NCBI GenBank assembly: GCA_028279825.1
Contig: JANQNA010000006.1
Location: forward strand, 2,771 to 66,770
DNA from: an archaeon
GTDB taxonomy: Archaea > Aenigmatarchaeota > Aenigmatarchaeia > GW2011-AR5
Direction of reading: 5' to 3'
Length of the DNA stretch: 64,000 nt
Of the stretch, positions 38,833-57,289 are shown piece after piece. Under the pieces are notes generated by a model that did not search any database, had not been told where the DNA came from, and was given only the letters and a program-made list of their open reading frames with translations. A program made the position numbers and the translations under genes. Positions within the stretch are counted from its first letter, which is position 1. Every line of letters starts with the position of its first letter.

Positions 38833-38836
38833 TAGT

Positions 38837-41854: not shown

Positions 41855-41855
41855 T

Positions 41856-43646
41856 ATGAATAGTAAAATAATTTTTCTAATGGTCCTGCTTAGTGGCGTT
41901 GGCTTTGCGGTATCGGACATAAATATTACAGGCAGCTCGTTCATAGACGTAGATCTTAACGTTACCGGAAGGATTTCAGGAAAAATTGCCGCTACGGGTA
42001 TTTCAGGAAATCTGAGTATTGTAGAAAATCTCTCTGTGGGTTCTGGTACTTTATTTGTTGACGCTCTGAACGGAAGGGTCGGAATAGGAGCAATGCCTCT
42101 GACAACTTTGTACGTATCGGGTAATATCAATGTCACTAGCGGTAATGACATATGTATAGACAATTTGTATTGTCTTACTACTGCTAACATCAGTGCAGGT
42201 GGCTGGACTGATGAAGGCGCACTGGTAAGGTTAACGATGAGCACAGACGATATCAATGCCACAACATTATTTATCAACAATACTCTAAGAATGGTTGGAA
42301 TAAATACTGTTCCCAATGCTACGCTGCATGTAAGCGGTACTCTTTTACAAGACCCTAATAAAACAATGTCTGTTGTTGGAAGCGTTACGGACGGACCAAA
42401 AATGGAAAACGCCAGATCTCTTTATGTTCAGGGCAAATATGCATACGTGACGTCACAAACAAACGACAGTTTGACTATCATAGATATATCCGACCCAACA
42501 AATCCCGTAATTGTTGCCTACCATACAAATAGTACAGGGCTTGAACAGGCTGCTGATATTTTTGTCAAGGGCAAGTATGCTTACATTGCCGGTCTTGCAC
42601 GTGATGCTCTGAGTATAATAGACGTATCCAATGTTACAAACCCAAAAAAAGTGAGTGAGGTCAGAGATACTTCCAGGCTGGACGGAATTGCTTATCCTTA
42701 CATTTCTGGCAAATACGCCTACGTTGCCAGCTACTTGAATGACAGCTTATCCGTTATAGATATATCCGATCCGACTTCAGCATCTATAGTAGGGTACGTT
42801 ACAAATAGCACAGTTCTGGAGGGTGCTGTGGCTGTTAAGGTTCAAGGCAGCTATGCTTACGTAGCTTCTCAAAACAATGATTCTTTAACGATAATAGATG
42901 TGTCAAATCCGGCCGAACCTTTCATTGTCGGCAGTGTGACGGATCTAAGACTTGAGGTTGCATGGGATGTTTATGTATCAGGCGGATATGCTTATGTACC
43001 CGGCAGATATAACGATAGTCTGTGCATTATAAATGTGACGGATGTATCAAAACCTTCTATAATAGGTTTTATTGTTGACAGTTCTAATATCGAGGGAGCA
43101 ATTGGCGTTACCGTACAAGGCAATTATGCTTACTTGGCATCTATTGTTTCTGGCAGCCTTTCTGTTATTGACATCTCAGACAAGACAACACCAAGAATCA
43201 TATCCACTCTTTCAGAAACTGGATTGACTGGTGCTACGCGCGTCTTTGTATCTGGAAAATATGCATACGTTGTGGCAAACACTAATGACAGCTTAACTGT
43301 GGTGGACATTGTCGGTATAGATTCATCAACGGCTTCTATAGGAGCTTTGGAAAGTAGTACGGTTCATGTTATAGAGAACGCAAAAATTGGTAATGATGTT
43401 TATGTGACAGGTGGTCTAATGACTGATGGACTGAAGATTGACGGGCCTGTCAGCTTCATGAATGATACACTGATAACGACATCTGCCGGTAGAGTAGGAA
43501 TCAATAATACAAACCCAACACAGGTATTGGATGTTGGCGGTAACATTATGGTGAACGGATCAGGCGGAAACGATCCTTACATTTATTTCGGAAAGGGCGG
43601 ATACATATATGATAACGGAACAGATCTGGTGTTCGGACATGGATAA
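41856..43646 (+). CDS. LVIVD-repeat beta-propeller surface protein (paralog C). The start is reset to the ATG at 41856, immediately after the upstream stop.
   Basis: MNSKIIFLMVLLSGVGFAVS signal/anchor. Stalk module with ICIDNLYCLT. About 10 LVIVD repeats (LTIIDISDPTNPVIVA...). It ends YIYFGKGGYIYDNGTDLVFGHG. The track ORF from 41760 overlaps the previous gene and adds non-homologous residues. Confidence 0.8.
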   Translation: MNSKIIFLMVLLSGVGFAVSDINITGSSFIDVDLNVTGRISGKIAATGISGNLSIVENLSVGSGTLFVDALNGRVGIGAMPLTTLYVSGNINVTSGNDICIDNLYCLTTANISAGGWTDEGALVRLTMSTDDINATTLFINNTLRMVGINTVPNATLHVSGTLLQDPNKTMSVVGSVTDGPKMENARSLYVQGKYAYVTSQTNDSLTIIDISDPTNPVIVAYHTNSTGLEQAADIFVKGKYAYIAGLARDALSIIDVSNVTNPKKVSEVRDTSRLDGIAYPYISGKYAYVASYLNDSLSVIDISDPTSASIVGYVTNSTVLEGAVAVKVQGSYAYVASQNNDSLTIIDVSNPAEPFIVGSVTDLRLEVAWDVYVSGGYAYVPGRYNDSLCIINVTDVSKPSIIGFIVDSSNIEGAIGVTVQGNYAYLASIVSGSLSVIDISDKTTPRIISTLSETGLTGATRVFVSGKYAYVVANTNDSLTVVDIVGIDSSTASIGALESSTVHVIENAKIGNDVYVTGGLMTDGLKIDGPVSFMNDTLITTSAGRVGINNTNPTQVLDVGGNIMVNGSGGNDPYIYFGKGGYIYDNGTDLVFGHG

Positions 43647-45096
43647 TAAGAAGTTAATCGTGATTGCGACAATCGGGCTTTTGTTTATGGTTAGTGCTAT
43701 CTTTGCTGCTGAAAAGGATATATACGATGAATGGAACATGAGTTATAGTGTTGGTAGTGAAGACGGACTTTATTCTATAAGTATTGATAATGAAGGAAAC
43801 GTATACTCCGGGGGCAGGCTGGGAACAGCTGGCATTAATATTCGCTTTGAAGTAATGAAACATAATTCTTCCGGGGATTTTGAATGGAATCGTAGTTTGG
43901 TAGCTGGTACCTGGTCACAGGCCTATGATACTGCAGTTGACAGTGAAGGTAATTTGTATGCAGTTGGCAGAGAGTGGTACACCACCAATAATCTTCAAAT
44001 AAAGAAATATTATCCTAACGGAACACTTGCATGGAACATAACAGATGATACAGGTGTTAGGATAGCTTTTGGTGTTGCCGTTGACGATAACGATCACATT
44101 TTTGTTGTTGGTTTATGCACCGACTGCTTCAATAGTACCAGTGGTTATGACTGGATTATAAGAAAATATAACTCTTCAGGTGCAGAAAATTTTACACATT
44201 GGAACAAAACAATTGATGCAAAGGCTTCGGATGATATAGCGCGAGATATTGTTATTGATAGTACTGGTGATATTTACGTGGTTGGAAGAGCAAGCAATAT
44301 TGTTACTACCACTAGCGGTGAAGACTGGTGGATCAAGAAATTTCATCCAAACGGGACTGAATATACAACAGCTGAAGGCTGGAATATAACATTTGATAGC
44401 GGGAGTAATGATGATTATGCAATGCATGCTGCAATTGATTGCGAGGATAATATATATGTAACAGGAACTGATTTTAATGCTCTTAGTGGAAGCAGTAATG
44501 ATGATTGGCGAATCAAAAAATACCAGTCTGATGGTACAGAAATAACTACAGGCTGGAATAAAGTAGAAGGAGATGACACGGACGGCTATGATACACCTAG
44601 GGGGGTGGAGGTTGACCAATCGTGTGATGTATACCTTACTGGAATTTTTCAACCAGCCCAGGGATTCACTGATACCAATTGGATTATAAAGAAATACAAT
44701 TCTACAGGAGCGGATCTTAACTGGAATATCACACTTGATGGTGGTGGGGCTAATACTCCCGATGAAGGATCTGCTATAGCTGTTGATGCCAATAATGATG
44801 TTTTCTTTGGTGGTGAATATTACGAAGCTACTGGGAATACTACAAATAGTGTAGACTGGTTTATGATTAAGTATCAGGGTGGTACAAAATGTAATCTTTG
44901 GGATGTTGATACGTGGACCATTGGCAGCAACAGAACGTGTACAGGACGGAACCTTAACTTTACCAATTTGACTATAACAGAAGGCGGGTCTTTGAGCCTA
45001 TGGGGCGGGACGAATCTGTCTGTTACCAACCTGAATATATCCACAACGGGTGATGCAATCTTTATAGAAGCCGGGAGCAAATTAGTAATAGGATGA
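43639..45096 (+). CDS. SBBP-repeat beta-propeller protein with C-terminal beta-helix-like segment (paralog D). The start is reset to the ATG at 43639.
   Basis: MDNKKLIVIATIGLLFMVSAIFA signal. Repeats NLYAVGREWYTTNNLQIKKYYPNGT / DWWIKKFHPNGTE / DWRIKKYQSDGTE (SBBP-like). The C-terminal segment NLNFTNLTITEGGSLSLWGGTNLSVTNLNISTTGDAIFIEAGS resembles parallel beta-helix rungs. Confidence 0.7.
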   Translation: MDNKKLIVIATIGLLFMVSAIFAAEKDIYDEWNMSYSVGSEDGLYSISIDNEGNVYSGGRLGTAGINIRFEVMKHNSSGDFEWNRSLVAGTWSQAYDTAVDSEGNLYAVGREWYTTNNLQIKKYYPNGTLAWNITDDTGVRIAFGVAVDDNDHIFVVGLCTDCFNSTSGYDWIIRKYNSSGAENFTHWNKTIDAKASDDIARDIVIDSTGDIYVVGRASNIVTTTSGEDWWIKKFHPNGTEYTTAEGWNITFDSGSNDDYAMHAAIDCEDNIYVTGTDFNALSGSSNDDWRIKKYQSDGTEITTGWNKVEGDDTDGYDTPRGVEVDQSCDVYLTGIFQPAQGFTDTNWIIKKYNSTGADLNWNITLDGGGANTPDEGSAIAVDANNDVFFGGEYYEATGNTTNSVDWFMIKYQGGTKCNLWDVDTWTIGSNRTCTGRNLNFTNLTITEGGSLSLWGGTNLSVTNLNISTTGDAIFIEAGSKLVIG

Positions 45097-45100
45097 TAAG

Positions 45101-45370
45101 ATGATTGAACTTATATGGATACTGACCGGTGGATTCTTCGGGGGACTTGTAAGAGGAACCGTTGGAATTCTCAAATCAATAAGAGCAGGACGCAAGATCA
45201 GAAAAAGATATTTGTTTTCTACGCTGGCTGCTTCGGCCCTGATAGGTATGATTGCCGGGCTTTTCGTTCATGATGATATAAAATTCTCAATACTGGCCGG
45301 TTATGTGGGAACGGACTTTATTGAGAGTCTCTATAAAGCAAGGTTTCAGGAATACAAGAAAAGAAAATAG
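45101..45370 (+). CDS. Small two-TM membrane protein with a highly basic C-terminus (holin-like topology; function unknown)
   Basis: 89 aa. Two hydrophobic helices (LIWILTGGFFGGLV and TLAASALIGMIAGLFV) and a C-terminal KARFQEYKKRK. It starts 4 nt after the upstream stop. Confidence 0.35.
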   Translation: MIELIWILTGGFFGGLVRGTVGILKSIRAGRKIRKRYLFSTLAASALIGMIAGLFVHDDIKFSILAGYVGTDFIESLYKARFQEYKKRK

Positions 45371-45397
45371 TTAGAAGCCTCCTGTAATAGGTTTAAA

Positions 45398-46012
45398 TTG
45401 TTTTCTGATAATTTATTGGTAATGAAAATGGACAAGGTATATCTTGGAATTATCGTGGTTCTTGTTTTGATTGTCGCTTACGTTGGCACACAGTCGGGAC
45501 AGTATGGTCTGGATGTTGCTGAAAAGGCTTCTGCTTCCGCTATTGTTGAGGAGCTCTATGAGCTACAATATGAAAGTGATGCGGAAATTCTTTCTGTGAG
45601 TGATCAGAATGGTTTGTATAAGGTTATTGTTCGTTTCACTGACTTTGCAGGGCAATCAGCTACACAGGATGTTTTTGTGACCAAAGATGGGGAGCTGCTT
45701 ACAGACAGGTTGATAATAACAGAGAATTACAAGAATGCTTTGGCAAACCAGAAGTCTTTTGCGGAATGCCTGGCAGATACAGGGCTTAGAATACTTGGAA
45801 AAACGGATGATACGGCTACCCTGCAGCAATTGGATGTGTTGGGCACTTATGCTTACAAAGTGTTTGTCTCCTGTGACGGACCAAGCGAACAGGCATGTAT
45901 AGATCTTGGCGTGCAGAGATATCCAACTACTGTTTATAACAACACAGGCTTTGACAACCTGTACAATCCTCAGTTCTTTGCTGAACTGACCGGCTGCGAG
46001 CTTCCTCAGTAG
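45398..46012 (+). CDS. Membrane-anchored extracytoplasmic protein, possibly thioredoxin-fold (DsbA-like) but with no CxxC motif
   Basis: N-terminal TM (VYLGIIVVLVLIVAYV). The C-terminal GVQRYPTTVYNNTG resembles the cis-Pro loop (GxxGTPTxxxNG) of thioredoxin-fold proteins. Only single Cys residues are found where the CxxC would sit. Confidence 0.25.
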   Translation: MFSDNLLVMKMDKVYLGIIVVLVLIVAYVGTQSGQYGLDVAEKASASAIVEELYELQYESDAEILSVSDQNGLYKVIVRFTDFAGQSATQDVFVTKDGELLTDRLIITENYKNALANQKSFAECLADTGLRILGKTDDTATLQQLDVLGTYAYKVFVSCDGPSEQACIDLGVQRYPTTVYNNTGFDNLYNPQFFAELTGCELPQ

Positions 46013-46054
46013 CTGCGTTAACTATAAATAACACTCGTAAACGTATTCTTACAT

Positions 46055-46561
46055 ATGTTAACTAGCAACGAGAATAGTGTACTCGCTGTATTCTTCCATG
46101 ATCCGGAAGGACGCTACTATATTAGAGAGCTGGCACGGATGACTGGGTTGTCAGCGCCGGGTATACTGAAAATCGTTGACAGACTGAGGAGACAAAGTCT
46201 CCTCAGAACAGAGAAAAAACTGGCAGTTACGAATGTTTGTGCCGGTGAAGAAAGGTTCTTCCAGGCGAAGAGGCTTTACAATATTGATTCTTTGTACGAT
46301 TGTGGTTTGGTTGATTTCCTTCGGAAAGATGATCCTGAGGCAATAGTTGTATTTGGTTCTTACTCAAACGGATTTGACAAAAAAGATGATACAATAGAGA
46401 TAGCTGTGATAACTGAAGAAACTCATAAATTCAAACTGGAAAAATTTGAAGCTAAACTAAAGAGGAAAATATCTGTAAAGCAGATCAACTCACCGTCATC
46501 TATGGGTGAACTGGAGAAGCTCGCTAATGGCGTTGTTCTTTACGGGAGCCTGAGCTTATGA
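46055..46561 (+). CDS. Winged-HTH plus minimal nucleotidyltransferase (Pol-beta superfamily) domain protein
   Basis: N-terminal wHTH (YIRELARMTGLSAPGILKIVDRLRRQSLL). NTase core IVVFGSYSNGFDKKDDTIEIAVI (GS...D.D motif). Its stop overlaps the start of the LamG gene (ATGA). Confidence 0.55.
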   Translation: MLTSNENSVLAVFFHDPEGRYYIRELARMTGLSAPGILKIVDRLRRQSLLRTEKKLAVTNVCAGEERFFQAKRLYNIDSLYDCGLVDFLRKDDPEAIVVFGSYSNGFDKKDDTIEIAVITEETHKFKLEKFEAKLKRKISVKQINSPSSMGELEKLANGVVLYGSLSL

Positions 46562-49500
46562 TGAAATATCTGTTAATCGTATTATTGCTGCTTTCTGGCG
46601 TAGCGGCAGCTCACACAGTTACGATGAATTTTGCCGTAAGGATTGAAGACAACGCAAGCAGCACGGTACGTGTTAATGATTCTGATTATACAACTTCTGC
46701 TACATTCACGAATCTTACCAGAGATTACATATCTGTTAACAGATCAAATGTTCTGGCTGCACTTGTGTCAGCGGGCAACATGTTCAATGCACGTATAAAC
46801 ACAAGTTTCTACAAGGATCTTGTAAACGAGACAGTTCTTATGATGCTGCATCTGGATAACAGCACATTAGACTCAAGCCAATATGGGAATTATGTAGTTG
46901 CGCGTAATGGTCTGGATTGTTCTCCAAGTGTGTCAGGTAAACTGAATACTGCGTGTAGCTTTGACGGTTCTGATGATTTCCTTAACAGAACAAAAATACC
47001 TGATATTGAGGGATCGGTGAACTATACTATAGCTATGTGGATCAAGACGGCGGGAGTTATATCAACACTTATTTTTGACTTTTTGGACACGACTGATACG
47101 GACTGGAATAATGGGACACAGTTTAGAATGATGTCCCAAGGTTCGGGAGCAACATCTAATTTGACTTCAAACACAACAACTGTATATTCTACATTAACAG
47201 ATACAAACGAATCTGACTGGGGCGGTACGTTCATTAACATGGCCGCGCAAGGTGCAAACAACGACAACATAACATCCAATAATGTTTCCGGCGAATACGT
47301 GGATACATTTGGTGCTTCTGTATACTCAAACTGGACAAACATAACTGTGAATACAGAAGCTTACTATGGAACTGAAGTTGGAAGAGGTTATGGAGATGGT
47401 GTTGATACAACTTTGCCTTCTGTTAATATGTCTGAATTGATTGGATTATGGCATTTGAATGATCGTGTTGCTGATAGTGAAGGAGAGAATCACGGTCTTG
47501 CGCAGAATGGCGCGCAGATAAACACAAGCGGTAGAATTGGTAATGCTGGTCAGTTTGATGGCGTTGATGACAGGGTTGATATATCATTTTCCGAGTCATT
47601 GAATTTTTCCGGACTGGAAGAGATTTCCATATCTACATGGTTCTGGGCAAAACCAAATCAGGAAGATGCCGATCCTAGACTTGTTAACCAGGGGAATGAA
47701 ATAGTCCTTAGAATTGATGCGGCTAATCAACAAATTGACTGGATTTTGAATAGTTTTGTCGGAACTGATAGAGTTAATTCTTTTTCAGACTCATTTAACT
47801 TTAGTATCTGGAACCATGTAATTGGTACATTCAATGGATCAAATCTAACGATATATATCAATGGGAAATTTGAAAGGTCTGCGAATGTTGGTACCGGTAC
47901 GTATGGTGGTGATTTGAATAGCTGGGCAATAGGATTTAATTCTCCTGGAGTGGGTTATAAACCATTCAACGGTTCAATAGATGATGTTGCAATATACAAT
48001 CGAACACTATCTGCTGGAGAAGTTAATGACTTGTTTGTAAGAGGTAATTCCAGCCTGGATAATAACGTAACATGGGGCAGGGTAGCTTACTGGAAGATGG
48101 ATGAGGATACTTGGTCTGTGAAGGATTCTTCTGGCCAGAATAATAATGGAACATCAATTGATGGCGTTTTGTATAACTCCAGTGCCGTATTTAATTCTTC
48201 CTTGACTTTTGATGGAATTGATGACGTTGTTACGTTACCAGCGAGTCTTATAAATGTCGGAGAGTCAGTGACCATATCTGCATGGTTCAATTCCAATAAC
48301 ATTACTGCGCAGGATGGCATTATAGAAAGTCTGGACAGTTCTTATCACGGATATTACATGGGATTCGAAACCGGGTCTGCAGATCAGGTACGCTGTTATT
48401 TCGAGAACAATGATACTGATTCTTTGACAGTTATAGCAACTACTGTTTTGGAAAACAATAATTGGTATCACACACTTTGCAGTTATGATGGTTCCACTCT
48501 TCGTATTTATTTGAATGGAAACGAACAGGATTCCGGTGCTCTAACAGGAAATATAAGCCTTGGTGAGATTCCAAGAATTGGTGCTTATGATGAAGGTTCT
48601 GACACTAATTTCAACGGTTCTATAGACGAAGTTGCAATTTGGAACAGGACACTTTCTGCAGAGGAAATAAAGAACCTGTACCTACGCGGCGCGTGGAGAT
48701 TGAATCTATCTGTTCGTAGTTGTGATGACTCTGCGTGCAGCGGTGAGAGCTTCGCTCCTGTCACAGATACAAACTTCATGGGTGGGACAGCTTCGCTGTC
48801 TGCTCAGGGCAAGTTTTTCCAGTACAACCTGACTTATGTAAACAAAACAGAAATAAACCTGTCTTCTGACAACCTTACAGTGAATGATGTTACTGTTAAT
48901 CTAAAAAGTGACGTTGTAACAACAGGTCATTTCCTTTCACAGATCTTTGATGCCAATACAACAGTTACGTGGAACAACATAAGTGTCTCAAGTGAAGCGT
49001 ATTATGGTACGGAGGTTGGTAGGGGTTATGGTGACGGTGATGTTGGTTTACCTTCTGTAAATACAACTGGACTGGTAGCTCTGTATCACTTCAACAATGA
49101 AAGTGCCTACAATGAGAATGACACACATGTGTATGATTTTTCCGGGTTTGGTAACAACGGTACAATTGTAAACGATTCATATTATGAATTGAATGACAAA
49201 GTGTTCGGTGCTTCTTCAATAACATTCAGTGGAAATAACAGTTATGTTGATTTCGGGAGTGATATCAACATCAGTGGAATTAGAAACTTTACGATTAGTT
49301 TATGGATTAATCCTGAGACTTGGGATCATGTACGTTTCAATGGTATAATATCCAAAAGGGATAATTTTACTATGGAGTATGACTGGGAAATTTATTATGA
49401 TAATGCCACTAGGGAGATAAGGATGGGTATTGGTCCTGGTCCTGCTGAATGGCTCTTTCTTAATGATGATGTTAATCCTTCTACAGGTGTGTGGCATCAC

Positions 49501-50637
49501 TTAGCTGTTGTAAAGTCAAACTACTCATATACACTGTATCTTGATGGGGTTAACCTATCATCCGATTCAAGTACTGTGACCATACCGTTTAGTAGTGCTA
49601 GTGTTAGACTCGGTACTGTATCCGATGTGTCAACTTTTCCTCCTTTAACTTTCAATGGTTCGATAGATGAGGTTAGCATTTGGAATCGTTCTCTGAGTGT
49701 AGCAGAAATTCGTAACTTATATTTGCGTGGAGTGGCTAGACTTAATCTTTCAGTCAGAGGCTGTGATGATGATGCTTGCTCTGGTGAAGTTTTCACATCT
49801 GTAACAAACACAAGTTTCATGGGTGGCTTAGCTACGCTAAGCCTTGCACAGAACCGCTACTTCCAGTACAATCTGAGTTATGTAAACAATACTCCTTTTA
49901 ACGGGAGTTCTTCTGTCACGGTAAACGATGCCGTGGTTGGCTATACTTCAAGCGGTACAAATGCGTCCGGTTTATTCACACAACATTTTGGTACATCAAA
50001 TATAATTGATATATATCTGGATAGTAGTGGTTACCTGAACTATTATACCTACCAGGGTGGTGCTGCTGATGTTGCCGATTCAACGGGTCTGTACGATGAT
50101 AACTGGCATCATGTAGCTGTTACAAAATCAGGTACCACGGGTACAATATACGTTGACGGAAGCAGCAGAGCATCTGACACAGTTGCAAGTGTTACTGGCA
50201 CAGGGGAAATAGTTATAGGAACCAGATGGGATCAATCAGATCCGTTTAGCGGTACTATTGATGAAGTAATTGTGTATAACCGAAGCCTATCAGCTTCTGA
50301 AGTAAACAATCTTTACAGATACAACCCTTATTATGTACTTACACAGATTACACAGGACAGCAAAGATAACAGATTCCTGGCGACAGTGACGAATGCAACT
50401 TATCTTGATGTTGAGGACAGATTCAGCATGATTGACATTGCCAGAATGGTCTCTACAACATTTGGTAACTTTGCTGTCAATATACCGGAAAGGTACCCGA
50501 TAATTCTTAGATTAGAGTATGATGATATTGACATAGAAGGCAATCTTCTTTGGTCCGGTTTAGGTGATCTTATAATGAAGAATAATGGACTCAATACAAG
50601 AGAACTTCCAAGGGTAGGAATAGGATTAGTGAGATAG
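46558..50637 (+). CDS. Large (1359 aa) secreted protein with at least 4 LamG-like (Laminin_G_3 / concanavalin A-like lectin) domains
   Basis: Signal MMKYLLIVLLLLSGVAAA. The hallmark FDGxDDxV...GSIDEVAIWNRTLSAEEIKNLY recurs. Variants: GSIDDVAIYNRTLSAGEVNDLF, GSIDEVSIWNRSLSVAEIRNLY, GTIDEVIVYNRSLSASEVNNLY. Dense N-x-S/T sequons. Confidence 0.8.
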   Translation: MMKYLLIVLLLLSGVAAAHTVTMNFAVRIEDNASSTVRVNDSDYTTSATFTNLTRDYISVNRSNVLAALVSAGNMFNARINTSFYKDLVNETVLMMLHLDNSTLDSSQYGNYVVARNGLDCSPSVSGKLNTACSFDGSDDFLNRTKIPDIEGSVNYTIAMWIKTAGVISTLIFDFLDTTDTDWNNGTQFRMMSQGSGATSNLTSNTTTVYSTLTDTNESDWGGTFINMAAQGANNDNITSNNVSGEYVDTFGASVYSNWTNITVNTEAYYGTEVGRGYGDGVDTTLPSVNMSELIGLWHLNDRVADSEGENHGLAQNGAQINTSGRIGNAGQFDGVDDRVDISFSESLNFSGLEEISISTWFWAKPNQEDADPRLVNQGNEIVLRIDAANQQIDWILNSFVGTDRVNSFSDSFNFSIWNHVIGTFNGSNLTIYINGKFERSANVGTGTYGGDLNSWAIGFNSPGVGYKPFNGSIDDVAIYNRTLSAGEVNDLFVRGNSSLDNNVTWGRVAYWKMDEDTWSVKDSSGQNNNGTSIDGVLYNSSAVFNSSLTFDGIDDVVTLPASLINVGESVTISAWFNSNNITAQDGIIESLDSSYHGYYMGFETGSADQVRCYFENNDTDSLTVIATTVLENNNWYHTLCSYDGSTLRIYLNGNEQDSGALTGNISLGEIPRIGAYDEGSDTNFNGSIDEVAIWNRTLSAEEIKNLYLRGAWRLNLSVRSCDDSACSGESFAPVTDTNFMGGTASLSAQGKFFQYNLTYVNKTEINLSSDNLTVNDVTVNLKSDVVTTGHFLSQIFDANTTVTWNNISVSSEAYYGTEVGRGYGDGDVGLPSVNTTGLVALYHFNNESAYNENDTHVYDFSGFGNNGTIVNDSYYELNDKVFGASSITFSGNNSYVDFGSDINISGIRNFTISLWINPETWDHVRFNGIISKRDNFTMEYDWEIYYDNATREIRMGIGPGPAEWLFLNDDVNPSTGVWHHLAVVKSNYSYTLYLDGVNLSSDSSTVTIPFSSASVRLGTVSDVSTFPPLTFNGSIDEVSIWNRSLSVAEIRNLYLRGVARLNLSVRGCDDDACSGEVFTSVTNTSFMGGLATLSLAQNRYFQYNLSYVNNTPFNGSSSVTVNDAVVGYTSSGTNASGLFTQHFGTSNIIDIYLDSSGYLNYYTYQGGAADVADSTGLYDDNWHHVAVTKSGTTGTIYVDGSSRASDTVASVTGTGEIVIGTRWDQSDPFSGTIDEVIVYNRSLSASEVNNLYRYNPYYVLTQITQDSKDNRFLATVTNATYLDVEDRFSMIDIARMVSTTFGNFAVNIPERYPIILRLEYDDIDIEGNLLWSGLGDLIMKNNGLNTRELPRVGIGLVR

Positions 50638-51114
50638 ATGAAAGGTAAAAAAATAAACAGACGCTTTGCGTCAAGGAGAGGTCAATCTGTGCTGCTTAGC
50701 CATGCAATACTTGTAGGATTCTCTATCTTTTTGATCTATGCAGTCACAACTACGTTTGTGTCGCTACGCGATGATTATCAGGAGTTCATAGGCGGAAACG
50801 AGATAAAACAGCTTTGTTTTGTGATGAACGGGGCAATAGAGAAAATTTACAACCAGCCGGAAGGCAATCTTTCTACTTACACGTTACTCGGATCTTTGGA
50901 GGTCCGTATGCCGGAAAAGATAGTAGATGTTAACTACAGAGCCAAGTTCATTAACAGATCAATTTTGATTGAGTCTATAGGTGACATTTTCAATGATACA
51001 TGTACCGTTGGATACGAGGCTAACTATAATGGTTCTACAGTTGGAGGGCTTACGAGACTTTCTTATTACAGGGCCTCTAACGGGACAAACGTGATAGAGA
51101 TGGTGCGGATATGA
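50638..51114 (+). CDS. Pilin-like protein with class III signal peptide (minor pilin candidate)
   Basis: MKGKKINRRFASRRGQSVLLSHAILVGFSIFLIYAV: a basic leader ending in RG, then a hydrophobic helix (prepilin peptidase site [KR]G|). It starts 1 nt after the LamG gene stop. Confidence 0.5.
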   Translation: MKGKKINRRFASRRGQSVLLSHAILVGFSIFLIYAVTTTFVSLRDDYQEFIGGNEIKQLCFVMNGAIEKIYNQPEGNLSTYTLLGSLEVRMPEKIVDVNYRAKFINRSILIESIGDIFNDTCTVGYEANYNGSTVGGLTRLSYYRASNGTNVIEMVRI

Positions 51115-52553
51115 GAAAGGGTTTTGTGCAGACTGATTACATAATAGCTATTGGGGTGTTTCTTGTAGTTTTTGCTATAGTTGCACAGTATGTGACAAAC
51201 TTCTTTGCTGATGTAACTCAAACAACGGATATAAGACTGATGACCAGCGAAGCGACTAGTCTTCTTTCAATAGCACAAGGTGATTATGTGCCAGGCGAAT
51301 GGCCTTATACAACACCAAACAGTTCTGTAATCTTCCAATTGCACTTGGATAACAGTACGCTTGATTCTGGTATATATGGCAACAATGGTACAATAAGCGG
51401 TGCAAATTGTTCTGTGAGTGTTCAAGGCAGAATCGGTGGTGCATGTGAGTTTGACGGACTATCACACATCACAATCAATGATTATACTTTGCTTAATGGT
51501 TCGAGTGAAATTACAGTGGGTGCGTGGATCTATATTGTTGACAGGACCGCTTATGATGGTATAATCTATCATTACACGTCTAATGCATTTGGTGGTTTAT
51601 CATTGAATGATGTAGCCACAGAGACTGTAAGGTTTGATGTCAAGACTAATAGAACAGGTTATATTGGACTTGGTAGTGGTAGCATCAATGTTTCTCTTAA
51701 CAAATGGCATCATATCGTTGGTACTTATCGAGACGGTGAGACAGCAAAACTTTATGTTGATGGTCGGCTTGCCGGAGAAAGTAGTGTATGGACCGGACAC
51801 ATTTGGCAGGACGACAACTTCAAGATTGGCTGGGATGATGCGTCCGCCATTAGAAGATTCAATGGTTCTATTGATCAAGTTTTTGTTTATAATAGATCAA
51901 TTTCTTCGGAGGAAATTTACAGAATCTATGCACATGAAAGTCTGTTAAAGCGTATTGGATTTTACAGTAAGGCCTATAGAATGAAGATAAGGGTGAACAA
52001 TACTCAGACACACCAAAGAAATCAAAGTGCGCCGTTAGGTGACATTGCAAGTGAACTGGTTGTATTCAACTATACAACTTTTGGAATAGTTCCTGATGTT
52101 GGATCTACAAAAGTTTATGATGCTAATGACAATCTTGTTGATTACAGTATATCTGGTAATGAAATCAGATTCAACTTTACTATAAGTGAGAATGATTCAA
52201 AGGACTTTACTGTTTACTTTGATGAAGATTCAAGCTTTGCGGAGCAAAGTTCATCTGTGACAGGCGTAGATAACGTTACAGACAAAATATATCCGATAGA
52301 TGAAATCTCTATAGTCCAGTTTAACAAGTTCAACTACTTACGGAATGCGAACTATACACTAATCAAAAATGCAACAGGTCTTCCGCAGGATTTCAGGATA
52401 AGTCTGACCGATTCACAAACAAGTTCACTTATCTTTGAGTTTGGCCCGACTCCGCCGCCTAGCGGAAACATTGTGGCATTTCGTAAGTTTGTATTATACC
52501 AGAATGCTACGGCATCTGTGAGGAAGGGGTCAATAACGTTCCAGGTGTGGTAA
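51111..52553 (+). CDS. Pilin-like N-terminus fused to a LamG lectin domain (putative pilus-tip or minor-pilin adhesin)
   Basis: MRKGFVQTDYIIAIGVFLVVFAIVA is a class III-like signal. LamG signature FDGLSHITINDYTLLNGSSEITVGAWIYI...GSIDQVFVYNRSISSEEIYRIY. Overlaps the previous gene by 4 nt. Confidence 0.6.
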   Translation: MRKGFVQTDYIIAIGVFLVVFAIVAQYVTNFFADVTQTTDIRLMTSEATSLLSIAQGDYVPGEWPYTTPNSSVIFQLHLDNSTLDSGIYGNNGTISGANCSVSVQGRIGGACEFDGLSHITINDYTLLNGSSEITVGAWIYIVDRTAYDGIIYHYTSNAFGGLSLNDVATETVRFDVKTNRTGYIGLGSGSINVSLNKWHHIVGTYRDGETAKLYVDGRLAGESSVWTGHIWQDDNFKIGWDDASAIRRFNGSIDQVFVYNRSISSEEIYRIYAHESLLKRIGFYSKAYRMKIRVNNTQTHQRNQSAPLGDIASELVVFNYTTFGIVPDVGSTKVYDANDNLVDYSISGNEIRFNFTISENDSKDFTVYFDEDSSFAEQSSSVTGVDNVTDKIYPIDEISIVQFNKFNYLRNANYTLIKNATGLPQDFRISLTDSQTSSLIFEFGPTPPPSGNIVAFRKFVLYQNATASVRKGSITFQVW

Positions 52554-52946
52554 ATGAAAGGATACATATACACGATAGAAGTTTTGCTGGCACTTTCATT
52601 AGTGTTAGTAATGATTGTTTTCATATTCAGCAGTACACCTGAGCAGCCTGAAACAAGTTTAGTGGTGATAAAGCAGACCGGTTATGATGCGTTGCATTAT
52701 CTGGATCAGACAGGTATGCTAAGAGATGCTGTTAGCAGAGAAGCCTATGGTGAGATAGCAGCAAACGTGACGGAAATGATGCCAAACAGCATCAAGTCAG
52801 ATGTTGCTATATGTACTGCTACGTTCTGTGAATCGTTTAAGATACCGGTTAACAGAACCATTGTTGCTGTCGATTATTATGTGTCCGGATATGAACAACA
52901 GTATCTTGAAAAGAAAGTGAGGTTATGGTTATGGCCAAGGTTCTAG
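52554..52946 (+). CDS. Pilin-like protein (130 aa) with class III-type N-terminus
   Basis: MKGYIYTIEVLLALSLVLVMIVFIF has KG then a hydrophobic helix with Glu at +6, resembling type IV pilins. It starts 1 nt after the previous stop. Confidence 0.45.
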   Translation: MKGYIYTIEVLLALSLVLVMIVFIFSSTPEQPETSLVVIKQTGYDALHYLDQTGMLRDAVSREAYGEIAANVTEMMPNSIKSDVAICTATFCESFKIPVNRTIVAVDYYVSGYEQQYLEKKVRLWLWPRF

Positions 52947-52953
52947 ACCGATC

Positions 52954-52999
52954 TTTTTCTTCAGAAGAAAAAGCTAGGTATCCCAAAAAGAACTTATTA
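52954..52999. promoter_or_regulatory. Conserved 44-bp intergenic motif, copy 2 (see 21727-21770). It is followed by the CTTAAGGG-flanked palindrome at 53014-53054.
   Basis: tttttcttcagaagaaaaagctaggtatcccaaaaagaacttatta. It is followed by cttaagggttttctttttcctaaaaagaaaaagcttaaggg. Confidence 0.5.
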
Positions 53000-53056
53000 T
53001 TTTTCTTTTACCTTAAGGGTTTTCTTTTTCCTAAAAAGAAAAAGCTTAAGGGTCAG

Positions 53057-53656
53057 ATGTTTCTGATAGCGTCAATCTTCATGATACTCGGGTTTGTTTT
53101 ACTCAGGAGTCTGCTAACTTTGCCGGAAATAACCCAGGAAAAGACAATACAGGATACACTTTACCTGGACCGTACTATTGACAATATTGTCACAGAATAC
53201 AACTATCTAACCGGCCTTGCTTCACTGCACTCAGATGTAAACGGCTCGGCCATTGATTACTTTTACAATTTCACAAAGTATATTAGATCAGAAGTGGACA
53301 GTCAGATACTTTATGTGTTTATCTATGCAAATGAATCTAGCAACTTTTCCGTTACCATGGGTAACTTTTTACAGGGCAACATGTCAGGTACGATAAATTT
53401 TACGGGTGCAACGCCTAACGGAGTTGTATTCTCTCTGAACGATACAAAAGATGTGACTTATCATTTTGAGGGCTCGGGATGGACAAATACCACGCTTAAC
53501 TATACTATCGGAAATACCTGGGTTCTGGACAAATTTGCTTTCAACAGTTCGGGTAACTATGTCAAGGGATTCTTTGACATAAGTCTGGATGATGGAGGAT
53601 TTTTTGTCAGGTCAAAAAGCACGTACAACAGGACCTGGACAAATGAGACGTGGTAA
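53057..53656 (+). CDS. N-terminally membrane-anchored extracytoplasmic protein. The start is ambiguous, since the longest ORF begins at 52925.
   Basis: From the Met at 53057 it reads MFLIASIFMILGFVLLRSLL... (signal anchor). The longer ORF from 52925 would add a leader ending ...KKKKLKG|QMFLIAS (class III-like). That extension runs through the conserved non-coding-looking motif, so the shorter start is preferred. Confidence 0.4.
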   Translation: MFLIASIFMILGFVLLRSLLTLPEITQEKTIQDTLYLDRTIDNIVTEYNYLTGLASLHSDVNGSAIDYFYNFTKYIRSEVDSQILYVFIYANESSNFSVTMGNFLQGNMSGTINFTGATPNGVVFSLNDTKDVTYHFEGSGWTNTTLNYTIGNTWVLDKFAFNSSGNYVKGFFDISLDDGGFFVRSKSTYNRTWTNETW

Positions 53657-54348
53657 GAATGAGTAATCTATTATCTGCAGCAGTACTTCTCCTGATATCA
53701 ATAATAGCTATTGCACTTGTACTAGGCATGGGACTGCCAGTAATCAACTCAGCCAGGGAAGCTGCTGAACTTCAGGGAGCTGAAGCCGATTTGCACTTTA
53801 TAGATACATACGTGAGGACGGTGGCACGTGAAGGCAAAGATTCTGTGCGTATCTTCAGCTTTACAAGCTCGAAGATGTTTGAGAGCATACCGGGCGAGGA
53901 TGCCATACAATATTCAATGGAGACCCAGACAAATTTCTTGGACTACCTGACAAGAAGTTTCTCAGGGAGCTTTGCCTATATTGCAGGCAGCAATGTGGAC
54001 TGCATAGAAAAAGACGGTGACGGGGACGGTGTGGTTGATCTTGTAGCCGAGAATGACAAGCTGAGAGTAGTTTTCAAGAAAATCAGCGGAACGGTTGATA
54101 CGGGCGAGGTTATCAGCCAGATGGTACGGAAGTTTGACAACACAACTGTTTATGTCGGAAATTCTTCTATAGTCATAGATGAGAATCCGTCTACGTCTGT
54201 TGGTTCAGGTTATACGGAGATTTCAAAACACGGTTATGAGCTTCCGCTGTGCCAGATTCACGTGGCTGTTGAAGGTATTATTGATTATGACGTTTTCTAC
54301 AAATTGTATGCAGGCGCGGACTTTATTGTAACGGAAGTTAGGATATAG
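53650..54348 (+). CDS. N-terminally membrane-anchored extracytoplasmic protein (hypothetical), last gene of the LamG/pilin-like operon
   Basis: MVRMSNLLSAAVLLLISIIAIALVLGMGLPV hydrophobic N-terminus. Overlaps the previous gene by 7 nt. Confidence 0.4.
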   Translation: MVRMSNLLSAAVLLLISIIAIALVLGMGLPVINSAREAAELQGAEADLHFIDTYVRTVAREGKDSVRIFSFTSSKMFESIPGEDAIQYSMETQTNFLDYLTRSFSGSFAYIAGSNVDCIEKDGDGDGVVDLVAENDKLRVVFKKISGTVDTGEVISQMVRKFDNTTVYVGNSSIVIDENPSTSVGSGYTEISKHGYELPLCQIHVAVEGIIDYDVFYKLYAGADFIVTEVRI

Positions 54349-54353
54349 TTCTT

Positions 54354-54815
54354 TTAGGTACATTTTGGTGTACCGTCAAATGTATCAGATATGCCACCAC
54401 AGTTTGTTGTGACTATGACTTTTGAGAAGGATGTCGGGCAAACTGAGGCAGATACGTTTGTCAGGTAGATTGTTCGTATAGCGCCAGGCGTAAAATCTGT
54501 GACCACAGAGAAGCCTGTGGAGAAGTTTCCTCCGGTTGTGTTGAACATCTGAGCGCTATTGATAGTCAAATCAGAAAATCCGGTGTTTTTCGCAATAACT
54601 CTGGCGGAACCGTTCAATGTGCCCCCGGCTGTTATGTAAACATCTTCTATGCTTATTTGAGAGTTAGAACAACCTACTGCTTCGGTTGTTTTATTGGAAA
54701 CAGTATCAGTTGTGTTTCTTGTCAGCGTAGAGAACCAGCCCATGATCAATGTGGCAATGGCAACAGTGAAAGCTATAAGCAATACTGCTGCTATCAGCGG
54801 GGAGATTCCTTTCAT
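54354..54815 (-). CDS. Archaeal type IV pilin (class III signal peptide; Pilin_N/DUF361-like)
   Basis: MKGISPLIAAVLLIAFTVAIATLIMGW... 153 aa with a Thr/Ser/Asn-rich beta domain and two Cys near the C-terminus (CGG...C). Confidence 0.75.
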   Translation of the reverse strand: MKGISPLIAAVLLIAFTVAIATLIMGWFSTLTRNTTDTVSNKTTEAVGCSNSQISIEDVYITAGGTLNGSARVIAKNTGFSDLTINSAQMFNTTGGNFSTGFSVVTDFTPGAIRTIYLTNVSASVCPTSFSKVIVTTNCGGISDTFDGTPKCT

Positions 54816-54872: not shown

Positions 54873-55328
54873 TTATATACACTTGGGTGTCCTGTCAAAT
54901 GTGTCCGTCACTCCTCCGCAATTGGACGTTGCAACTACCTTTGAAAAGTCTGACGGGCATGTACCTATGGAAGCATTGTAGAGTCTGATGTTCGCTATCT
55001 GACCTTTTGCGAAGTTAGGTACCGACGTGAAGCCTGTTGAGGTGTTATGGCCTGTTTTGTTGAATACCTGGACATCTTGAATATCAATAGGCCCGAATCC
55101 GGTATTCTGTATAACAACCGTGACAGTCGCGTTGTTGCTTGATTCGACGAAGACTTCTTTTATGGACAATCTTGCGTCGGCACATCCAACAGCTGTTGTA
55201 GTATGATTAGTAATAGAAGACGTTGTTGAACGGGCGGTACTTGAATACCAGCCCATAATTAGTGTAGCGATTGCTACAGTGAAGGCCATCAGCATTACTG
55301 CTGCTATAAGTGGCGATATTCCCCTCAT
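54873..55328 (-). CDS. Archaeal type IV pilin (paralog)
   Basis: MRGISPLIAAVMLMAFTVAIATLIMGW... 151 aa, colinear with the 54354 pilin, including the C-terminal ...SNCGGVTDTFDRTPKCI. Confidence 0.75.
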   Translation of the reverse strand: MRGISPLIAAVMLMAFTVAIATLIMGWYSSTARSTTSSITNHTTTAVGCADARLSIKEVFVESSNNATVTVVIQNTGFGPIDIQDVQVFNKTGHNTSTGFTSVPNFAKGQIANIRLYNASIGTCPSDFSKVVATSNCGGVTDTFDRTPKCI

Positions 55329-55489: not shown

Positions 55490-55915
55490 ATGAAGGGAGT
55501 ATCACCTTTGATTGCGGCGGTTCTTCTTATTGCTGTGACAATGGCTATCGCTGGTGTTATGGCTACGTGGGCTACAACTTTTACATCAGGCAGGATAGGT
55601 GAATCCAGTGCAGGCGCAAATTGTATAGGCTCACTGGATATAAGTTCTCTAACATTTTCTAACCAGACACTTTCTCTGAAGATAAGGAATGTTGCAGACA
55701 GGATAAACATGACTGATATAAGAGCATTGATAGAGTATCAGGATGTTTCGAAGAATACAGAGATAAACATAGCGAATTTCAACGCAACAGATCCACTTCC
55801 ACCCGGTGCAACAACGTGGTTGGTGTATGACACAGGCGGCACGGAAAAGCCGGTAAAGGTAGAGATACTTGCACAAAACTGTCTGAAGTATCCGGCAACA
55901 CTGTATTTCCGCTAA
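55490..55915 (+). CDS. Archaeal type IV pilin (paralog)
   Basis: MKGVSPLIAAVLLIAVTMAIAGVMATW... 141 aa. Confidence 0.75.
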   Translation: MKGVSPLIAAVLLIAVTMAIAGVMATWATTFTSGRIGESSAGANCIGSLDISSLTFSNQTLSLKIRNVADRINMTDIRALIEYQDVSKNTEINIANFNATDPLPPGATTWLVYDTGGTEKPVKVEILAQNCLKYPATLYFR

Positions 55916-55948: not shown

Positions 55949-56440
55949 ATGAAGGGTGCTAGTGTATTGATGGCATCGGTTGTCCTTGTTTTGATCACCG
56001 TAGTTGCATCTATTTTTCTATCCGGATGGATGTCTACCACAACTACTGCACAGACTGATAGAATAAAAAACGATACGGAAACGCAGCTGAAGTGCCAGTT
56101 TGCCGATATTTACATAAAAAACGCCACCTATAACTGCAACAGCGACTGCGCTGCAGGCACTGCTCACACATTGTCCCTAACAGTTGTCAATTCCGGGAAG
56201 AAAGGTGTTCTTGTAAACACCATGTATATAAGAAATACCACAGGTCACGTGACTGCTTTGCTGCTTAATGAGACAAAAACACTTAACGTCGGGGATATGC
56301 TGACTGTCCAGAATGTTACGTCGACTTCTTGCACAGGCATAAACAATACAATCGAAGTTATATCCATGAGCACTATTACCTGCCCGGCCACGGCTTACGA
56401 CAGCATACAAGGCGGAGACGTAACCTACATAAACTGTTAG
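55949..56440 (+). CDS. Archaeal type IV pilin-like protein (divergent paralog)
   Basis: MKGASVLMASVVLVLITVVASIFLSGW... 163 aa. Several Cys. Confidence 0.65.
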   Translation: MKGASVLMASVVLVLITVVASIFLSGWMSTTTTAQTDRIKNDTETQLKCQFADIYIKNATYNCNSDCAAGTAHTLSLTVVNSGKKGVLVNTMYIRNTTGHVTALLLNETKTLNVGDMLTVQNVTSTSCTGINNTIEVISMSTITCPATAYDSIQGGDVTYINC

Positions 56441-56507: not shown

Positions 56508-56978
56508 ATGAAGGGAGTCTCGCCGTTGATAGCGACGGTCATGCTTATTGTTATAGTTGTTAGCATTGTTGCTCTGATGTCAGGATGGCTCACGAGTTTC
56601 TTCATGGGTACAAGAGAAACGGTCAGCAACAGGACAGATACAAGTGTTGACTGTACAGGTGCAATAATGACCATTGATGCTGTGTACTTAAAAAACGGCA
56701 CATTTCCTCTGGGAGAGGCTAATGTAGTGGTAAGGAATGAAGGCCTGGTCGATGACCTGGCTATAATGGCTGCTGTTTTGTATAATACAACCGGACATAA
56801 CTTCTCTACAGCTACACCACTTCCGGTGACAGATCTTGATCGCGGCGGTGTTGAGACTCTTCGCTTTGCAAATCTGAGCATAAATGAGAACTGTACTGCT
56901 TTCTCGCGTGTTGTTGTGACAAACCAATGTGGGTCAGATACATTCAAGGGTGCTCCAACAGAGTGTGTCAAATCCTAA
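56508..56978 (+). CDS. Archaeal type IV pilin (paralog)
   Basis: MKGVSPLIATVMLIVIVVSIVALMSGW... 156 aa. C-terminal ...TNQCGSDTFKGAPTECV. Confidence 0.75.
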   Translation: MKGVSPLIATVMLIVIVVSIVALMSGWLTSFFMGTRETVSNRTDTSVDCTGAIMTIDAVYLKNGTFPLGEANVVVRNEGLVDDLAIMAAVLYNTTGHNFSTATPLPVTDLDRGGVETLRFANLSINENCTAFSRVVVTNQCGSDTFKGAPTECVKS

Positions 56979-57013: not shown

Positions 57014-57289
57014 ATGGAGGCTAGTTCGGCTGGTTAGCGGGCAGCTGTAGCCATCAATCCGCTATAGATGGGATCGAAGCTTGAGGGCGATGCCTGTTGT
57101 GAAGGGAGCCCAATGCTTGAGCGTCGAAGCTCAGTCCTGTGGGATCATGTTTATGGCGAATCGGGTCAGGTCCGGAAGGAAGCAGCCCTAACTCATGGGC
57201 GTGGTGCTCTCAGGGTCGCTGAGTGGAGCAATGGTGTTGGACAAACTCTCTTTGTTTCAGACATCCACCTTGGGCGTGCCTCCACTAAT
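57014..57289 (+). ncRNA. Signal recognition particle RNA (7S / SRP RNA)
   Basis: A GC-rich island in AT-rich DNA. It contains the universally conserved helix-8 sequence GGGUCAGGUCCGGAAGGAAGCAGCC (57163-57187). The 5' GGAGGC and 3' GCCUCC termini can pair. It is followed by a T6 tract. The 77-aa track ORF 57068-57301 lies inside it and is rejected. Confidence 0.8.

Follow-up and report, generated by a model that had tools for sequence, protein, structure and literature searches.

Seven closely packed genes (g1 to g7) occupy positions 46055-54348 on the + strand of a 64-kb stretch of archaeal DNA, here called the window, that carries type IV pilus genes. We consider, with a probability of roughly 65%, that six of them (g2 to g7) form a minor-pilin/adhesin accessory cassette of an Aenigmarchaeota type IV pilus, and that g1 is a separate, decayed element of the toxin-antitoxin (TA) type, present together with its promoter. 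The cassette comprises a single protein secreted by Sec (g2) together with five that are pilin-like (g3-g7). That it is a real and coherent system is well supported; its function is proposed by analogy with known systems, and it is probably used for holding on to sugars of a host cell or surface. An earlier note on this DNA had read the region as minor pilins encoded with an adhesin. This reading holds and can be extended: all five of the proteins g3-g7, and not three, belong to conserved pilin-like families.

The case for a gene unit depends on conservation in other genomes. The contigs of g4 orthologues together with 17 genome loci were retrieved, and the cassette genes were mapped on them using hidden Markov models (HMMs) built from the first sets of orthologues. 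In what follows, L-numbers (L002 to L035) designate contigs or loci of relatives and P-numbers individual protein sequences; full gene tables were read for four loci (L009, L011, L013 and L015). The order g2-g3-g4-g5-g6-g7 is strictly colinear in approximately 18 Aenigmarchaeota genomes, that is, at every locus long enough to show it, so several minor pilins and an adhesin are encoded there as a conserved unit. Full-length orthologues of g4 are 35-47% identical to it and come from Aenigmarchaeota only. More generally, all full-length relatives of the genes studied that carry a taxon name are from Candidatus Aenigmatarchaeota (DPANN), archaeon GW2011_AR5 (AR5) among them. The gene g1 heads none of the approximately 18 orthologous cassettes. 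In the literature searched, the six-gene Aenigmarchaeota cassette appears to be new as a defined set.

Within the window, all seven open reading frames (ORFs) proposed earlier as a tightly packed + strand series are present and their junctions were confirmed by reading the sequence. Two are ATGA overlaps (g1/g2, 46558-46561, and g3/g4, 51111-51114), and at two others the stop and start codons abut (g2/g3, TAG/ATG, 50635-50640, and g4/g5, TAA/ATG, 52551-52556). The g5/g6 overlap is 16 nt with the ATG at 52931, which is the start chosen by an independent gene caller, or 22 nt with the ATG at 52925. Between g6 and g7 there is a 2-nt spacer (TAA-ga-ATG) with the gene caller's start at 53659; starting instead from the GTG at 53650 gives an overlap of 7 nt. 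The packing described earlier, with spacers or overlaps of 0-7 nt, is therefore real except that the g5/g6 overlap is larger. A start for g6 at 53057 has to be rejected because it would delete the KG/QMF motif found in every orthologue (in protein motifs the slash marks the end of the leader). Motifs of the Shine-Dalgarno (SD) type (GGTG/GAGGT) lie 5' of the internal genes g3-g6, with weaker G-rich stretches only before g2 and g7. Since same-strand overlaps of 1-17 nt are frequent elsewhere in the window (6298/6314, 6870/6873, 19373/19376, 22737 and 37024/37027), packing alone is weak evidence for an operon. The conserved gene order seen on comparing genomes is the strong evidence for a gene unit, and we infer co-transcription of g1-g7 as a single operon.

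The five pilin-like proteins each have a recognisable N-terminus that is retained, with variations, in their orthologues. The product of g3 (50638-51114, + strand) is a minor pilin of the DUF7266 type with the leader MKGKKINRRFASRRG/QSVLLSHAIL and two invariant cysteines; comparison of orthologues gives the conserved N-terminus [KR]G/Q[SA]xL[LV]SHAI. That of g4 (51111-52553, + strand) is a modular minor pilin with the leader MRKG/FVQTDY, a long helix, a LamG insert and a conserved beta domain of approximately 200 amino acids (aa). Its orthologues share KG/[FI]xQxDY, with an acidic residue at +5, which is also a trait of bacterial pilins. The small minor pilin encoded by g5 (52554-52946, + strand; leader MKG/YIYTIEVLLA) belongs to a set in which the motif is kept as KG/[YF][IV]YT[IL]E. 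With the gene caller's start, which is preceded by an SD-like GAGGT, g6 (52931-53656, + strand) encodes a minor pilin with a 41-aa leader (...KKLKG/QMFLIASIF). Here the conserved sequence is KG/QMF[ILVM]I, and the length of the leader ranges, among five orthologues that were compared, from approximately 2 to 47 residues. Finally, g7 (53659-54348, + strand) encodes a pilin-like protein, of the DUF7289 type, whose leader is very short (MSN/LLSAAVLLL). The g7 leader is very short in most genomes; the AR5 orthologue has KKG/LSTIV, and a paralogue within the window, g7', has MKG/ELISTVIV.

Conserved class III leader sequences are thus found in g3 (RRG/Q), g4 (RKG/F), g5 (MKG/Y) and g6 (LKG/Q), and cleavage at these sites is predicted. 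In all five proteins the 18 residues following the site are strongly hydrophobic, with a mean Kyte-Doolittle value of 2.1-3.0. AlphaFold2 (AF2) models show N-terminal helices of 48-56 residues which begin at the predicted cleavage site. In the model of g3, obtained from the family alignment with a mean predicted local distance difference test score (pLDDT) of 83, a helix from residue 15 to 70 is followed by a seven-strand head. The model of P0050, a g4 orthologue that lacks LamG (pLDDT 83), has a helix (4-51), a loop of low confidence (56-65) and a beta domain.

For four of the five proteins, remote matches also point to uncharacterised Pfam families. DUF7266 is matched by all 19 of the g3 orthologues (best E=1.8e-9), DUF7289 by 11 of 18 g7/g7' sequences (best 2.9e-8) and DUF7288, weakly, by 3 of 18 g5 orthologues (best 1.4e-4). 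DUF7287 matches the N-terminus of g4, including that of several g4 orthologues. The succession DUF7266-7287-7288-7289 parallels the gene order g3, g4, g5, g7. An exhaustive search with the g3 profile returned only 138 clusters, and the distant relatives among them are bona fide DUF7266 proteins; for example, P0189, retrieved in this way, scores 63.5 bits. Two other distant DUF7266 relatives, P0226 (851 aa) and P0212 (586 aa), have vWA or Big_7 modules grafted on behind their N-terminal pilin part, so that modular minor pilins of adhesive type may be widespread in archaea. An alignment-based homologue search for haloarchaeal DUF7266/DUF728x loci returned only Aenigmarchaeota, and a tblastn search of P0189 against plasmids gave no match. 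There is no mention of DUF7266, DUF7287, DUF7288 or DUF7289 in the literature searched, where linking these four families to a pilus cassette appears to be new.

Two members of the cassette, g2 and g4, carry LamG domains, as identified by their profile scores against Pfam; sugar binding by these modules is a prediction. For g4, Laminin_G_3 gives 85.6 bits (cut-off 27.6). The insertion extends from approximately aa 76 to 280 (51336-51950, + strand) and is located between the helix and the conserved C-terminal domain. Its edges are conserved and its body is hypervariable, with a mean pairwise identity of 25% compared with 51-61% for the flanks. Versions of g4 without LamG are 256-286 aa long (P0046, P0048, P0049 and P0050), and the low-confidence loop in the P0050 model coincides with or adjoins the point at which LamG is inserted in g4.

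The second LamG protein is g2 (46558-50637, + strand), a Sec-secreted protein of 1359 aa with a signal peptide ending in ...GVAAA/HTV. Its orthologues precede g3 in approximately 15 genomes; elsewhere they are 186-403 aa long and carry one LamG module or none, and the window version is the largest seen. Orthologues of approximately 190 aa from AR5 and L013 match g2 in two halves, separated by approximately 1170 residues of LamG modules. With an HMM of the short orthologues, residues 3-85 (46564-46812, + strand) match model positions 2-91 with an independent E-value (i-E) of 2.4e-20, and residues 1255-1359 (50320-50634, + strand) match positions 90-194 (i-E 9e-27). The array between them (46819-50319, + strand) contains four to five Laminin_G_3 modules, with a Pfam score of 300.4 bits in 4 stretches (cut-off 27.6) in addition to a Laminin_G_2 match. 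A custom HMM distinguishes five LamG-like segments (aa 88-213, 289-495, 514-709, 840-1056 and 1105-1284), the fifth of which overlaps the beginning of the C-terminal half of the core. To judge from these matches, the 1359-aa protein is a conserved secreted core of approximately 190 aa split by insertion of a LamG array. The earlier description of a huge multi-LamG protein was accurate concerning the array; the protein is not a free-standing giant lectin but an orthologue of the small cassette protein.

A 70-nt repeat encoding FNGSIDEV occurs four times in g2, its copies being 63-74% identical in nucleotide sequence, and the LamG-encoding repeats of the window are 61-74% identical at the nucleotide level. 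Since this identity is so low, the repeats are old, and a recent duplication as the origin of the array was ruled out. Some genomes have LamG in g4 alone, some in g2 alone, some in both and some in neither. The pattern indicates that g2 and g4 each have one fixed point at which LamG modules are optionally inserted. Such internal insertion points, in a pilin and in its secreted partner, appear to be new in the literature searched. Among the other genes of the window is one for an exosortase/archaeosortase-like membrane protein (5721-6314, + strand; Exosortase_EpsH, E=1.4e-8); a sorting signal was not seen on g2.

The pilus context proposed earlier is supported by the full type IV pilus machinery encoded in the same window, where a PilB-type ATPase, TadC proteins and an A24 peptidase co-occur with the cassette. 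The prepilin peptidase gene (Peptidase_A24) is at 11545-12339 on the - strand. On the + strand are genes for the PilB-type ATPase (17703-19376), a KaiC-type ATPase (19373-20035) and two TadC/T2SSF proteins (20047-20913 and 20917-21720). These are followed by a 297-aa ORF without a family match (21844-22737, + strand), which may be a further pilus component, and then, with a 1-nt overlap, by the g7' paralogue (22737-23468, + strand), retrieved by the g7 HMM with E=3.2e-30. In some relatives the machinery is much closer to the cassette. L030 has KaiC and two TadC genes, after which comes the cassette block, made up of a small ORF for a secreted product, g7' and g2-g5, and in L032 two TadC-like ORFs lie approximately 0.9 kb upstream of g2. 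The g7' paralogue adjoins g2 on its upstream side in L013, L021, L022 and L030.

Immediately downstream of the cassette in the window are six genes for PilA-like pilins. The first two are on the - strand: a major pilin with MKG/ISPLIAAV (54354-54815), which has a Pilin_N match and is syntenic in orthologous loci, and another with MRG/ISPLIAAV (54873-55328), recognised by its N-terminal motif. Three more are on the + strand (55490-55915, 55949-56440 and 56508-56978), identified by Pilin_N and Arch_flagellin matches together with N-terminal motifs, and the sixth (57988-58407, + strand) was recognised by its motif, KG/VSAVVVV. The relatives are similar in this respect: two to six genes for PilA-like pilins of approximately 150 aa follow the cassette in L009, L011, L013 and L015, and genes for an M50 peptidase and a HerA-type ATPase come next in L011, L013 and L015, as they do in the window.

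The first gene, g1 (46055-46561, + strand), is of a different nature. It encodes a 168-aa protein composed of a winged helix-turn-helix (wHTH) and a minimal, MntA-like nucleotidyltransferase of the Pol-beta type. Pfam returns Polbeta nucleotidyltransferase at 29.7 bits (cut-off 26.9) and weak MarR/HTH_24 matches, and the family profile matches Shewanella oneidensis MntA (5YEP) in the PDB with E=5.8e-8. Relatives are rare, with just 11 found in a search of 5.8 billion proteins. The minimal nucleotidyltransferase fold with its GS motif is present (FGSYS in g1), and the score with the NCBIfam MntA equivalog model is 24.5 bits, far below the cut-off (60). In the catalytic Dx[DE] motif the carboxylates are altered: g1 has DTIEI where the family has SDIDI. 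Both substitutions, D113T and D115E, are unique to the window copy among 10 family members, and 35 of the 44 positions that are invariant in close homologues are retained. The gene adjacent to g1 is g2 and not that of a HEPN (HepT) toxin. The kinship with MNT nucleotidyltransferases and HEPN partners that had been raised for the gene at 46055 is accordingly borne out by the Polbeta and 5YEP matches, and fails for the NCBIfam model and for the partner.

Relatives of g1 are two-gene modules in unrelated contexts. Its homologues in L003-L005, L006-L008 and L024 are followed by an overlapping gene for a 146-157-aa partner with the invariant signature HEA...RxxRNxxxY. Pfam and PDB searches, with single sequences and with profiles, did not identify these partners of the closest homologues as HEPN proteins. 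The partner of a more distant wHTH-nucleotidyltransferase, in L033, does match Pfam HEPN over its full length (E=4.9e-4). In L006 (2858-14156), a g1 homologue and its partner head a block that encodes a coiled-coil protein, DUF7502, a MoxR ATPase and DUF58 and is adjoined by two vWA/BatA proteins; vWA and MoxR have earlier been linked to archaeal pili. These comparisons place g1 outside the cassette, as a member of a small wHTH-MntA-like family, and it is most likely a toxin-antitoxin remnant. A decayed wHTH-MntA gene at the head of an operon appears to be new in the literature searched.

Reading of the sequence upstream of g1 (46020-46054, + strand) reveals a promoter with a GTTAAC-TATAAATA box centred approximately 29 nt before the ATG, a distance that implies a leaderless g1 transcript. 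A second, degenerate GTAAAC half-site lies 3' of the box. The layout GTTAAC-TTTAAATA-N6-GTTAAC also precedes g1 homologues in the unrelated loci L002, L003 and L006. Orthologues of g2 that have a free upstream region carry a TTTATTAT box approximately 30 nt before the ATG; this box is missing before g2 in the window. The TATA promoter of g1 has replaced the usual g2 promoter and, to judge from these motifs, now most likely drives the whole operon.

The position occupied by g1 receives many other genes in the relatives. Upstream of their cassettes are HicAB, VapBC, MazEF, MNT+HepT and wHTH-nucleotidyltransferase genes with truncated HEPN ORFs (TA-like modules occur, for example, at L033 234-2710, L011 1340-4902, L009 7932-8368 and L018 232-2361). 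In L033, g2 and g3 are separated by an intact wHTH-nucleotidyltransferase+HEPN pair, and g3 and g4 by a Fic gene. From this gene content, the upstream region of the cassette, and even its interior, is a hotspot for TA-like insertions in Aenigmarchaeota. The HEPN gene of L033 overlaps the start of g3 by 4 nt, so that an ATGA junction between a TA-like module and a cassette gene is no evidence of a functional partnership. In both L013 and L021, a small wHTH gene overlaps the gene that opens the cassette block, as does an unverified 102-aa ORF in L016. The L013 and L021 proteins are 73% identical to each other and show no BLASTP similarity to the wHTH of g1. An operon headed by a transcription factor gene is therefore a recurring arrangement.

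Comparison with characterised systems suggests how the cassette might function. In Streptococcus sanguinis, a tip complex includes PilC, a modular minor pilin that bears a lectin (PMC9934059). The PilA-PilB-PilC system resembles the present one in having a class III signal peptide pilin with a grafted lectin of the ConA/LamG type, encoded beside other minor pilins, and PilB has a parallel in the vWA modules of the distant DUF7266 relatives of g3. The proposed role, that of a glycan-binding adhesion complex located at the tip, is likewise shared. The two systems also differ. There is no sequence homology, and the machinery in the window is archaeal (PibD/A24, TadC and KaiC). The lectin of g4 lies between the N-terminal helix and the beta domain of the pilin itself, whereas PilC has its lectin at the C-terminal end. 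The pilin-like proteins number five and not three, and further lectin modules are contributed by g2, which is not a pilin. The other closest characterised analogues are the PilY1/PilC and FimU-PilVWXE (GspHIJK-type) operons of diderm bacteria, in which four to five minor pilins are encoded with a large, Sec-exported, non-pilin adhesin. The minor pilins of diderm type IV pili are thought to prime assembly and to display the adhesin at the tip. Unlike PilY1, g2 has neither a beta-propeller nor PilY1 domains, and its adhesive part is a LamG array within a small core.

Among archaeal pilus loci, the clade 2 loci described in the text of Makarova, Koonin and Albers (2016; PMC4858521) have PilB, KaiC, two TadC proteins and PilA-family pilins, as does the window, where the PilA-like pilins have stand-alone genes. 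The clade 1 loci of the same text include large adhesins with the lectin-like DUF2341 alongside five or more minor pilins, a combination of large lectin-type adhesins with approximately five minor pilins that matches the idea of the cassette. The terms LamG, laminin, concanavalin and nucleotidyltransferase do not occur in the main text of that article, so the LamG insertions in the pilin and in g2 are not described there, nor are Aenigmarchaeota mentioned in that text. DPANN genomes are rich in LamG proteins, some of them tied to type IV pilus loci (PMC5498576). For g1, the relevant system is the type VII HepT-MntA (HEPN-MNT) module. The g1 family profile matches the MntA motif GSYSxG...SDIDIAV, and the homologues of g1 precede an overlapping partner gene of 146-157 aa; in a related module, that of L033, the partner matches Pfam HEPN. 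The g1 protein differs from MntA in having an N-terminal wHTH fused to the nucleotidyltransferase and, in the window, in the replacement of both aspartates and the loss of the partner.

These likenesses suggest the following scheme. The A24 peptidase of the window would cleave g3, g4, g5 and g6 after the conserved [KR]G. The hydrophobic N-terminal helices of the minor pilins would then bundle on the TadC platform, with energy supplied by PilB, and the initiation complex would reach the tip of the pilus as the PilA-like major pilins encoded downstream polymerise beneath it. In this complex g4 would present its LamG lectin module on a flexible linker, with the helix on one side and the beta domain on the other. 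Exported by Sec, the non-pilin g2 would dock on the complex via its core of approximately 190 aa and display four or five more LamG modules. The resulting tip, with g2 and g4, would be a multivalent and rapidly diversifying glycan binder whose target may be a host cell surface or a polysaccharide. As for g1, a wHTH-MntA-like module of the TA type may have been inserted before g2 with its own, autoregulated-looking promoter, and may then have lost the partner gene (HEPN-like in the more distant module) and the catalytic aspartates. A stronger version, in which hypervariable and swappable LamG cassettes in g4 and g2 set the host range and a TA-derived wHTH pseudo-nucleotidyltransferase has been captured as promoter and regulator, we consider unlikely.

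A number of observations weigh against this interpretation. Some concern the window copies themselves: g7 (MSN/LL) has no [KR][GA] site, g3 scores 16.9 bits with DUF7266 (cut-off 27.6), and the scores with DUF7287 (g4, 22.6 bits), DUF7288 (g5, 16.8 bits) and DUF7289 (g7, 12.8 bits) are all below the cut-off of 27. There is no Pfam family match for g6, and Foldseek searches of the PDB with the g3 and P0050 models gave no significant match. A strict FlaFind-type pattern accepts just g3 of the five proteins. Such a check had been suggested for the class III sites; because it also rejects four of the window's six obvious PilA-type pilins, the pattern does not discriminate here and was not used as a criterion. 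Other points concern organisation. The assembly genes are 25 kb upstream of the cassette, with giant adhesin genes between them, and g1 contains a candidate cryptic promoter for g2 (for example, CATAAATT approximately 130 nt before it). In addition, cleavage, assembly, tip location and ligand are all proposed by analogy.

For g1 there is an alternative interpretation. The earlier note regarded the wHTH-nucleotidyltransferase as an unusual regulator of the operon. In the form of a conserved regulator this does not survive, given the absence of g1 from the head of other cassettes, the presence of its relatives elsewhere and the loss of both partner and aspartates. A weaker form does survive since g1 has its own promoter, the usual g2 promoter is absent and wHTH genes overlap the cassette heads of two relatives. 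According to this, g1 would be a domesticated, dedicated transcription factor whose wHTH binds the GTTAAC sites surrounding its TATA box to switch g1-g7 on or off, the dead nucleotidyltransferase domain serving to dimerise or to sense a ligand. In favour of this, the g1 promoter stands in place of the native one. The strong deviation of the catalytic aspartates only, with the wHTH and the 35 invariant positions retained, fits a pseudoenzyme better than a decaying gene, and the overlapping wHTH genes of L013 and L021 (with the unverified ORF of L016), unrelated to g1, make a transcription factor in this place a recurrent solution. The text of Makarova et al. also describes diverse regulators in archaeal type IV pilus loci (PMC4858521). 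On the other hand, g1 occurs at this position in a single genome, at a site which, like the cassette interior, is hit by many selfish TA-like modules (for example, the wHTH-nucleotidyltransferase+HEPN pair and Fic of L033). Any antitoxin would be expected to autoregulate its own promoter, and this need not mean that it is adapted to the pilus genes. Domestication of g1 is thus possible, with a minority chance. It is quite improbable that g1 still functions as antitoxin or regulator for a toxin gene located elsewhere in the genome, without functional connection to the pilus genes. Its ORF is intact, most family-conserved positions are kept and the window represents only 64 kb of the genome; however, neutralisation of the MntA type in type VII TA systems requires the DxD carboxylates, both of which are altered, and the gene calls place nothing partner-like between g1 and g2 (the remainder of the window being unsearched with the partner profile).

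There are alternatives also for the ligand and for the structure built from the pilins. The LamG modules might anchor the cell, via pili, to an environmental polysaccharide such as plant xylan instead of to a host cell. A 1104-aa protein with a glycoside hydrolase family 10 (GH10, xylanase family) domain is encoded 6 kb downstream of the cassette (60491-63805, - strand), an unusual cargo for a DPANN archaeon; LamG/ConA-like domains are common as carbohydrate-binding modules, and the data single out no ligand. We nevertheless find this doubtful. The GH10 gene is outside the synteny conserved at the other loci read, hypervariability of LamG between species suits variable cell-surface glycans better than a uniform polymer, and the LamG expansion in DPANN has been tied, as a proposal only, to interaction with hosts (PMC5498576). 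Alternatively, the five pilin-like proteins might form a short pseudopilus or basal structure, in the style of type II secretion or of the Sulfolobus bindosome, that exports or holds g2 and other surface proteins. Five minor (pseudo)pilins with one Sec-dependent cargo do resemble the logic of type II secretion, numerous giant secreted proteins have their genes in the interval that separates the machinery from the cassette, and the text of Makarova et al. sets archaeal minor pilins near the base of the pilus by analogy with the archaellum (PMC4858521). This is improbable given that PilA-type major pilin genes (six in the window) are syntenic with the cassette both here and in relatives and that, in characterised systems, bulky modules grafted onto pilins fit only at the filament tip (PMC9934059). 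An accessory cassette that places its lectin modules at the end of a type IV pilus, with g1 as a decayed TA-type element in front of it, remains the explanation we favour.

Several other features of the window complete this description. The approximately 23 kb between g7' and g1 contain genes for giant surface proteins followed by two small genes. The run of giant genes (26183-45096, + strand) encodes a 3614-aa protein with 20 YadA-head repeats and SLBB, LVIVD propellers (602, 1005 and 628 aa) and an SBBP-repeat protein; a protein with Big domains is also among those located there. YadA-head repeats are typical of the trimeric autotransporter adhesins of bacteria. The two small genes just before g1 (45101-46012, + strand) encode an 89-aa membrane protein and an N-terminally anchored protein of approximately 196 aa. 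The latter gene is kept upstream of the cassette in AR5, L011, L018 and L035. For the 89-aa protein, a clear relative of 97 aa exists in L024; at that position AR5 has an apparently unrelated ORF of 90 aa. The window is archaeal as it contains an archaeal signal recognition particle (SRP) RNA (57014-57285, + strand) and a TFIIB gene; the former is situated amid the array of PilA-like genes, with the fifth pilin gene on one side and the M50 peptidase gene on the other. A scan for sigma-70 promoters and terminators was set aside, the organism being an archaeon. ARAGORN detected no tRNA in the whole window. An Rfam tRNA match of 35 bits spanning 150 nt (13730-13879, - strand) is probably an intron-containing archaeal tRNA. 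The same contig is contained in the Logan assembly of SRR20820740.

Current ideas are not overturned by these results: modular pilins bearing lectins are established in bacteria, as are tip complexes, and a link between LamG and pili in DPANN has already been noted. What is gained is, in part, a likely role as archaeal minor pilins for DUF7266, DUF7287, DUF7288 and DUF7289, four uncharacterised archaeal families. In addition, g1 would provide a small example of a TA module decaying in place, its promoter inherited by the neighbouring genes. Attachment to other cells is the way of life of DPANN archaea, and the means by which they recognise a host and keep hold of it are largely unexplained. 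The six-gene, pilus-linked set, with its two fixed slots in which fast-diverging lectin modules come and go, offers concrete candidate determinants of host specificity.

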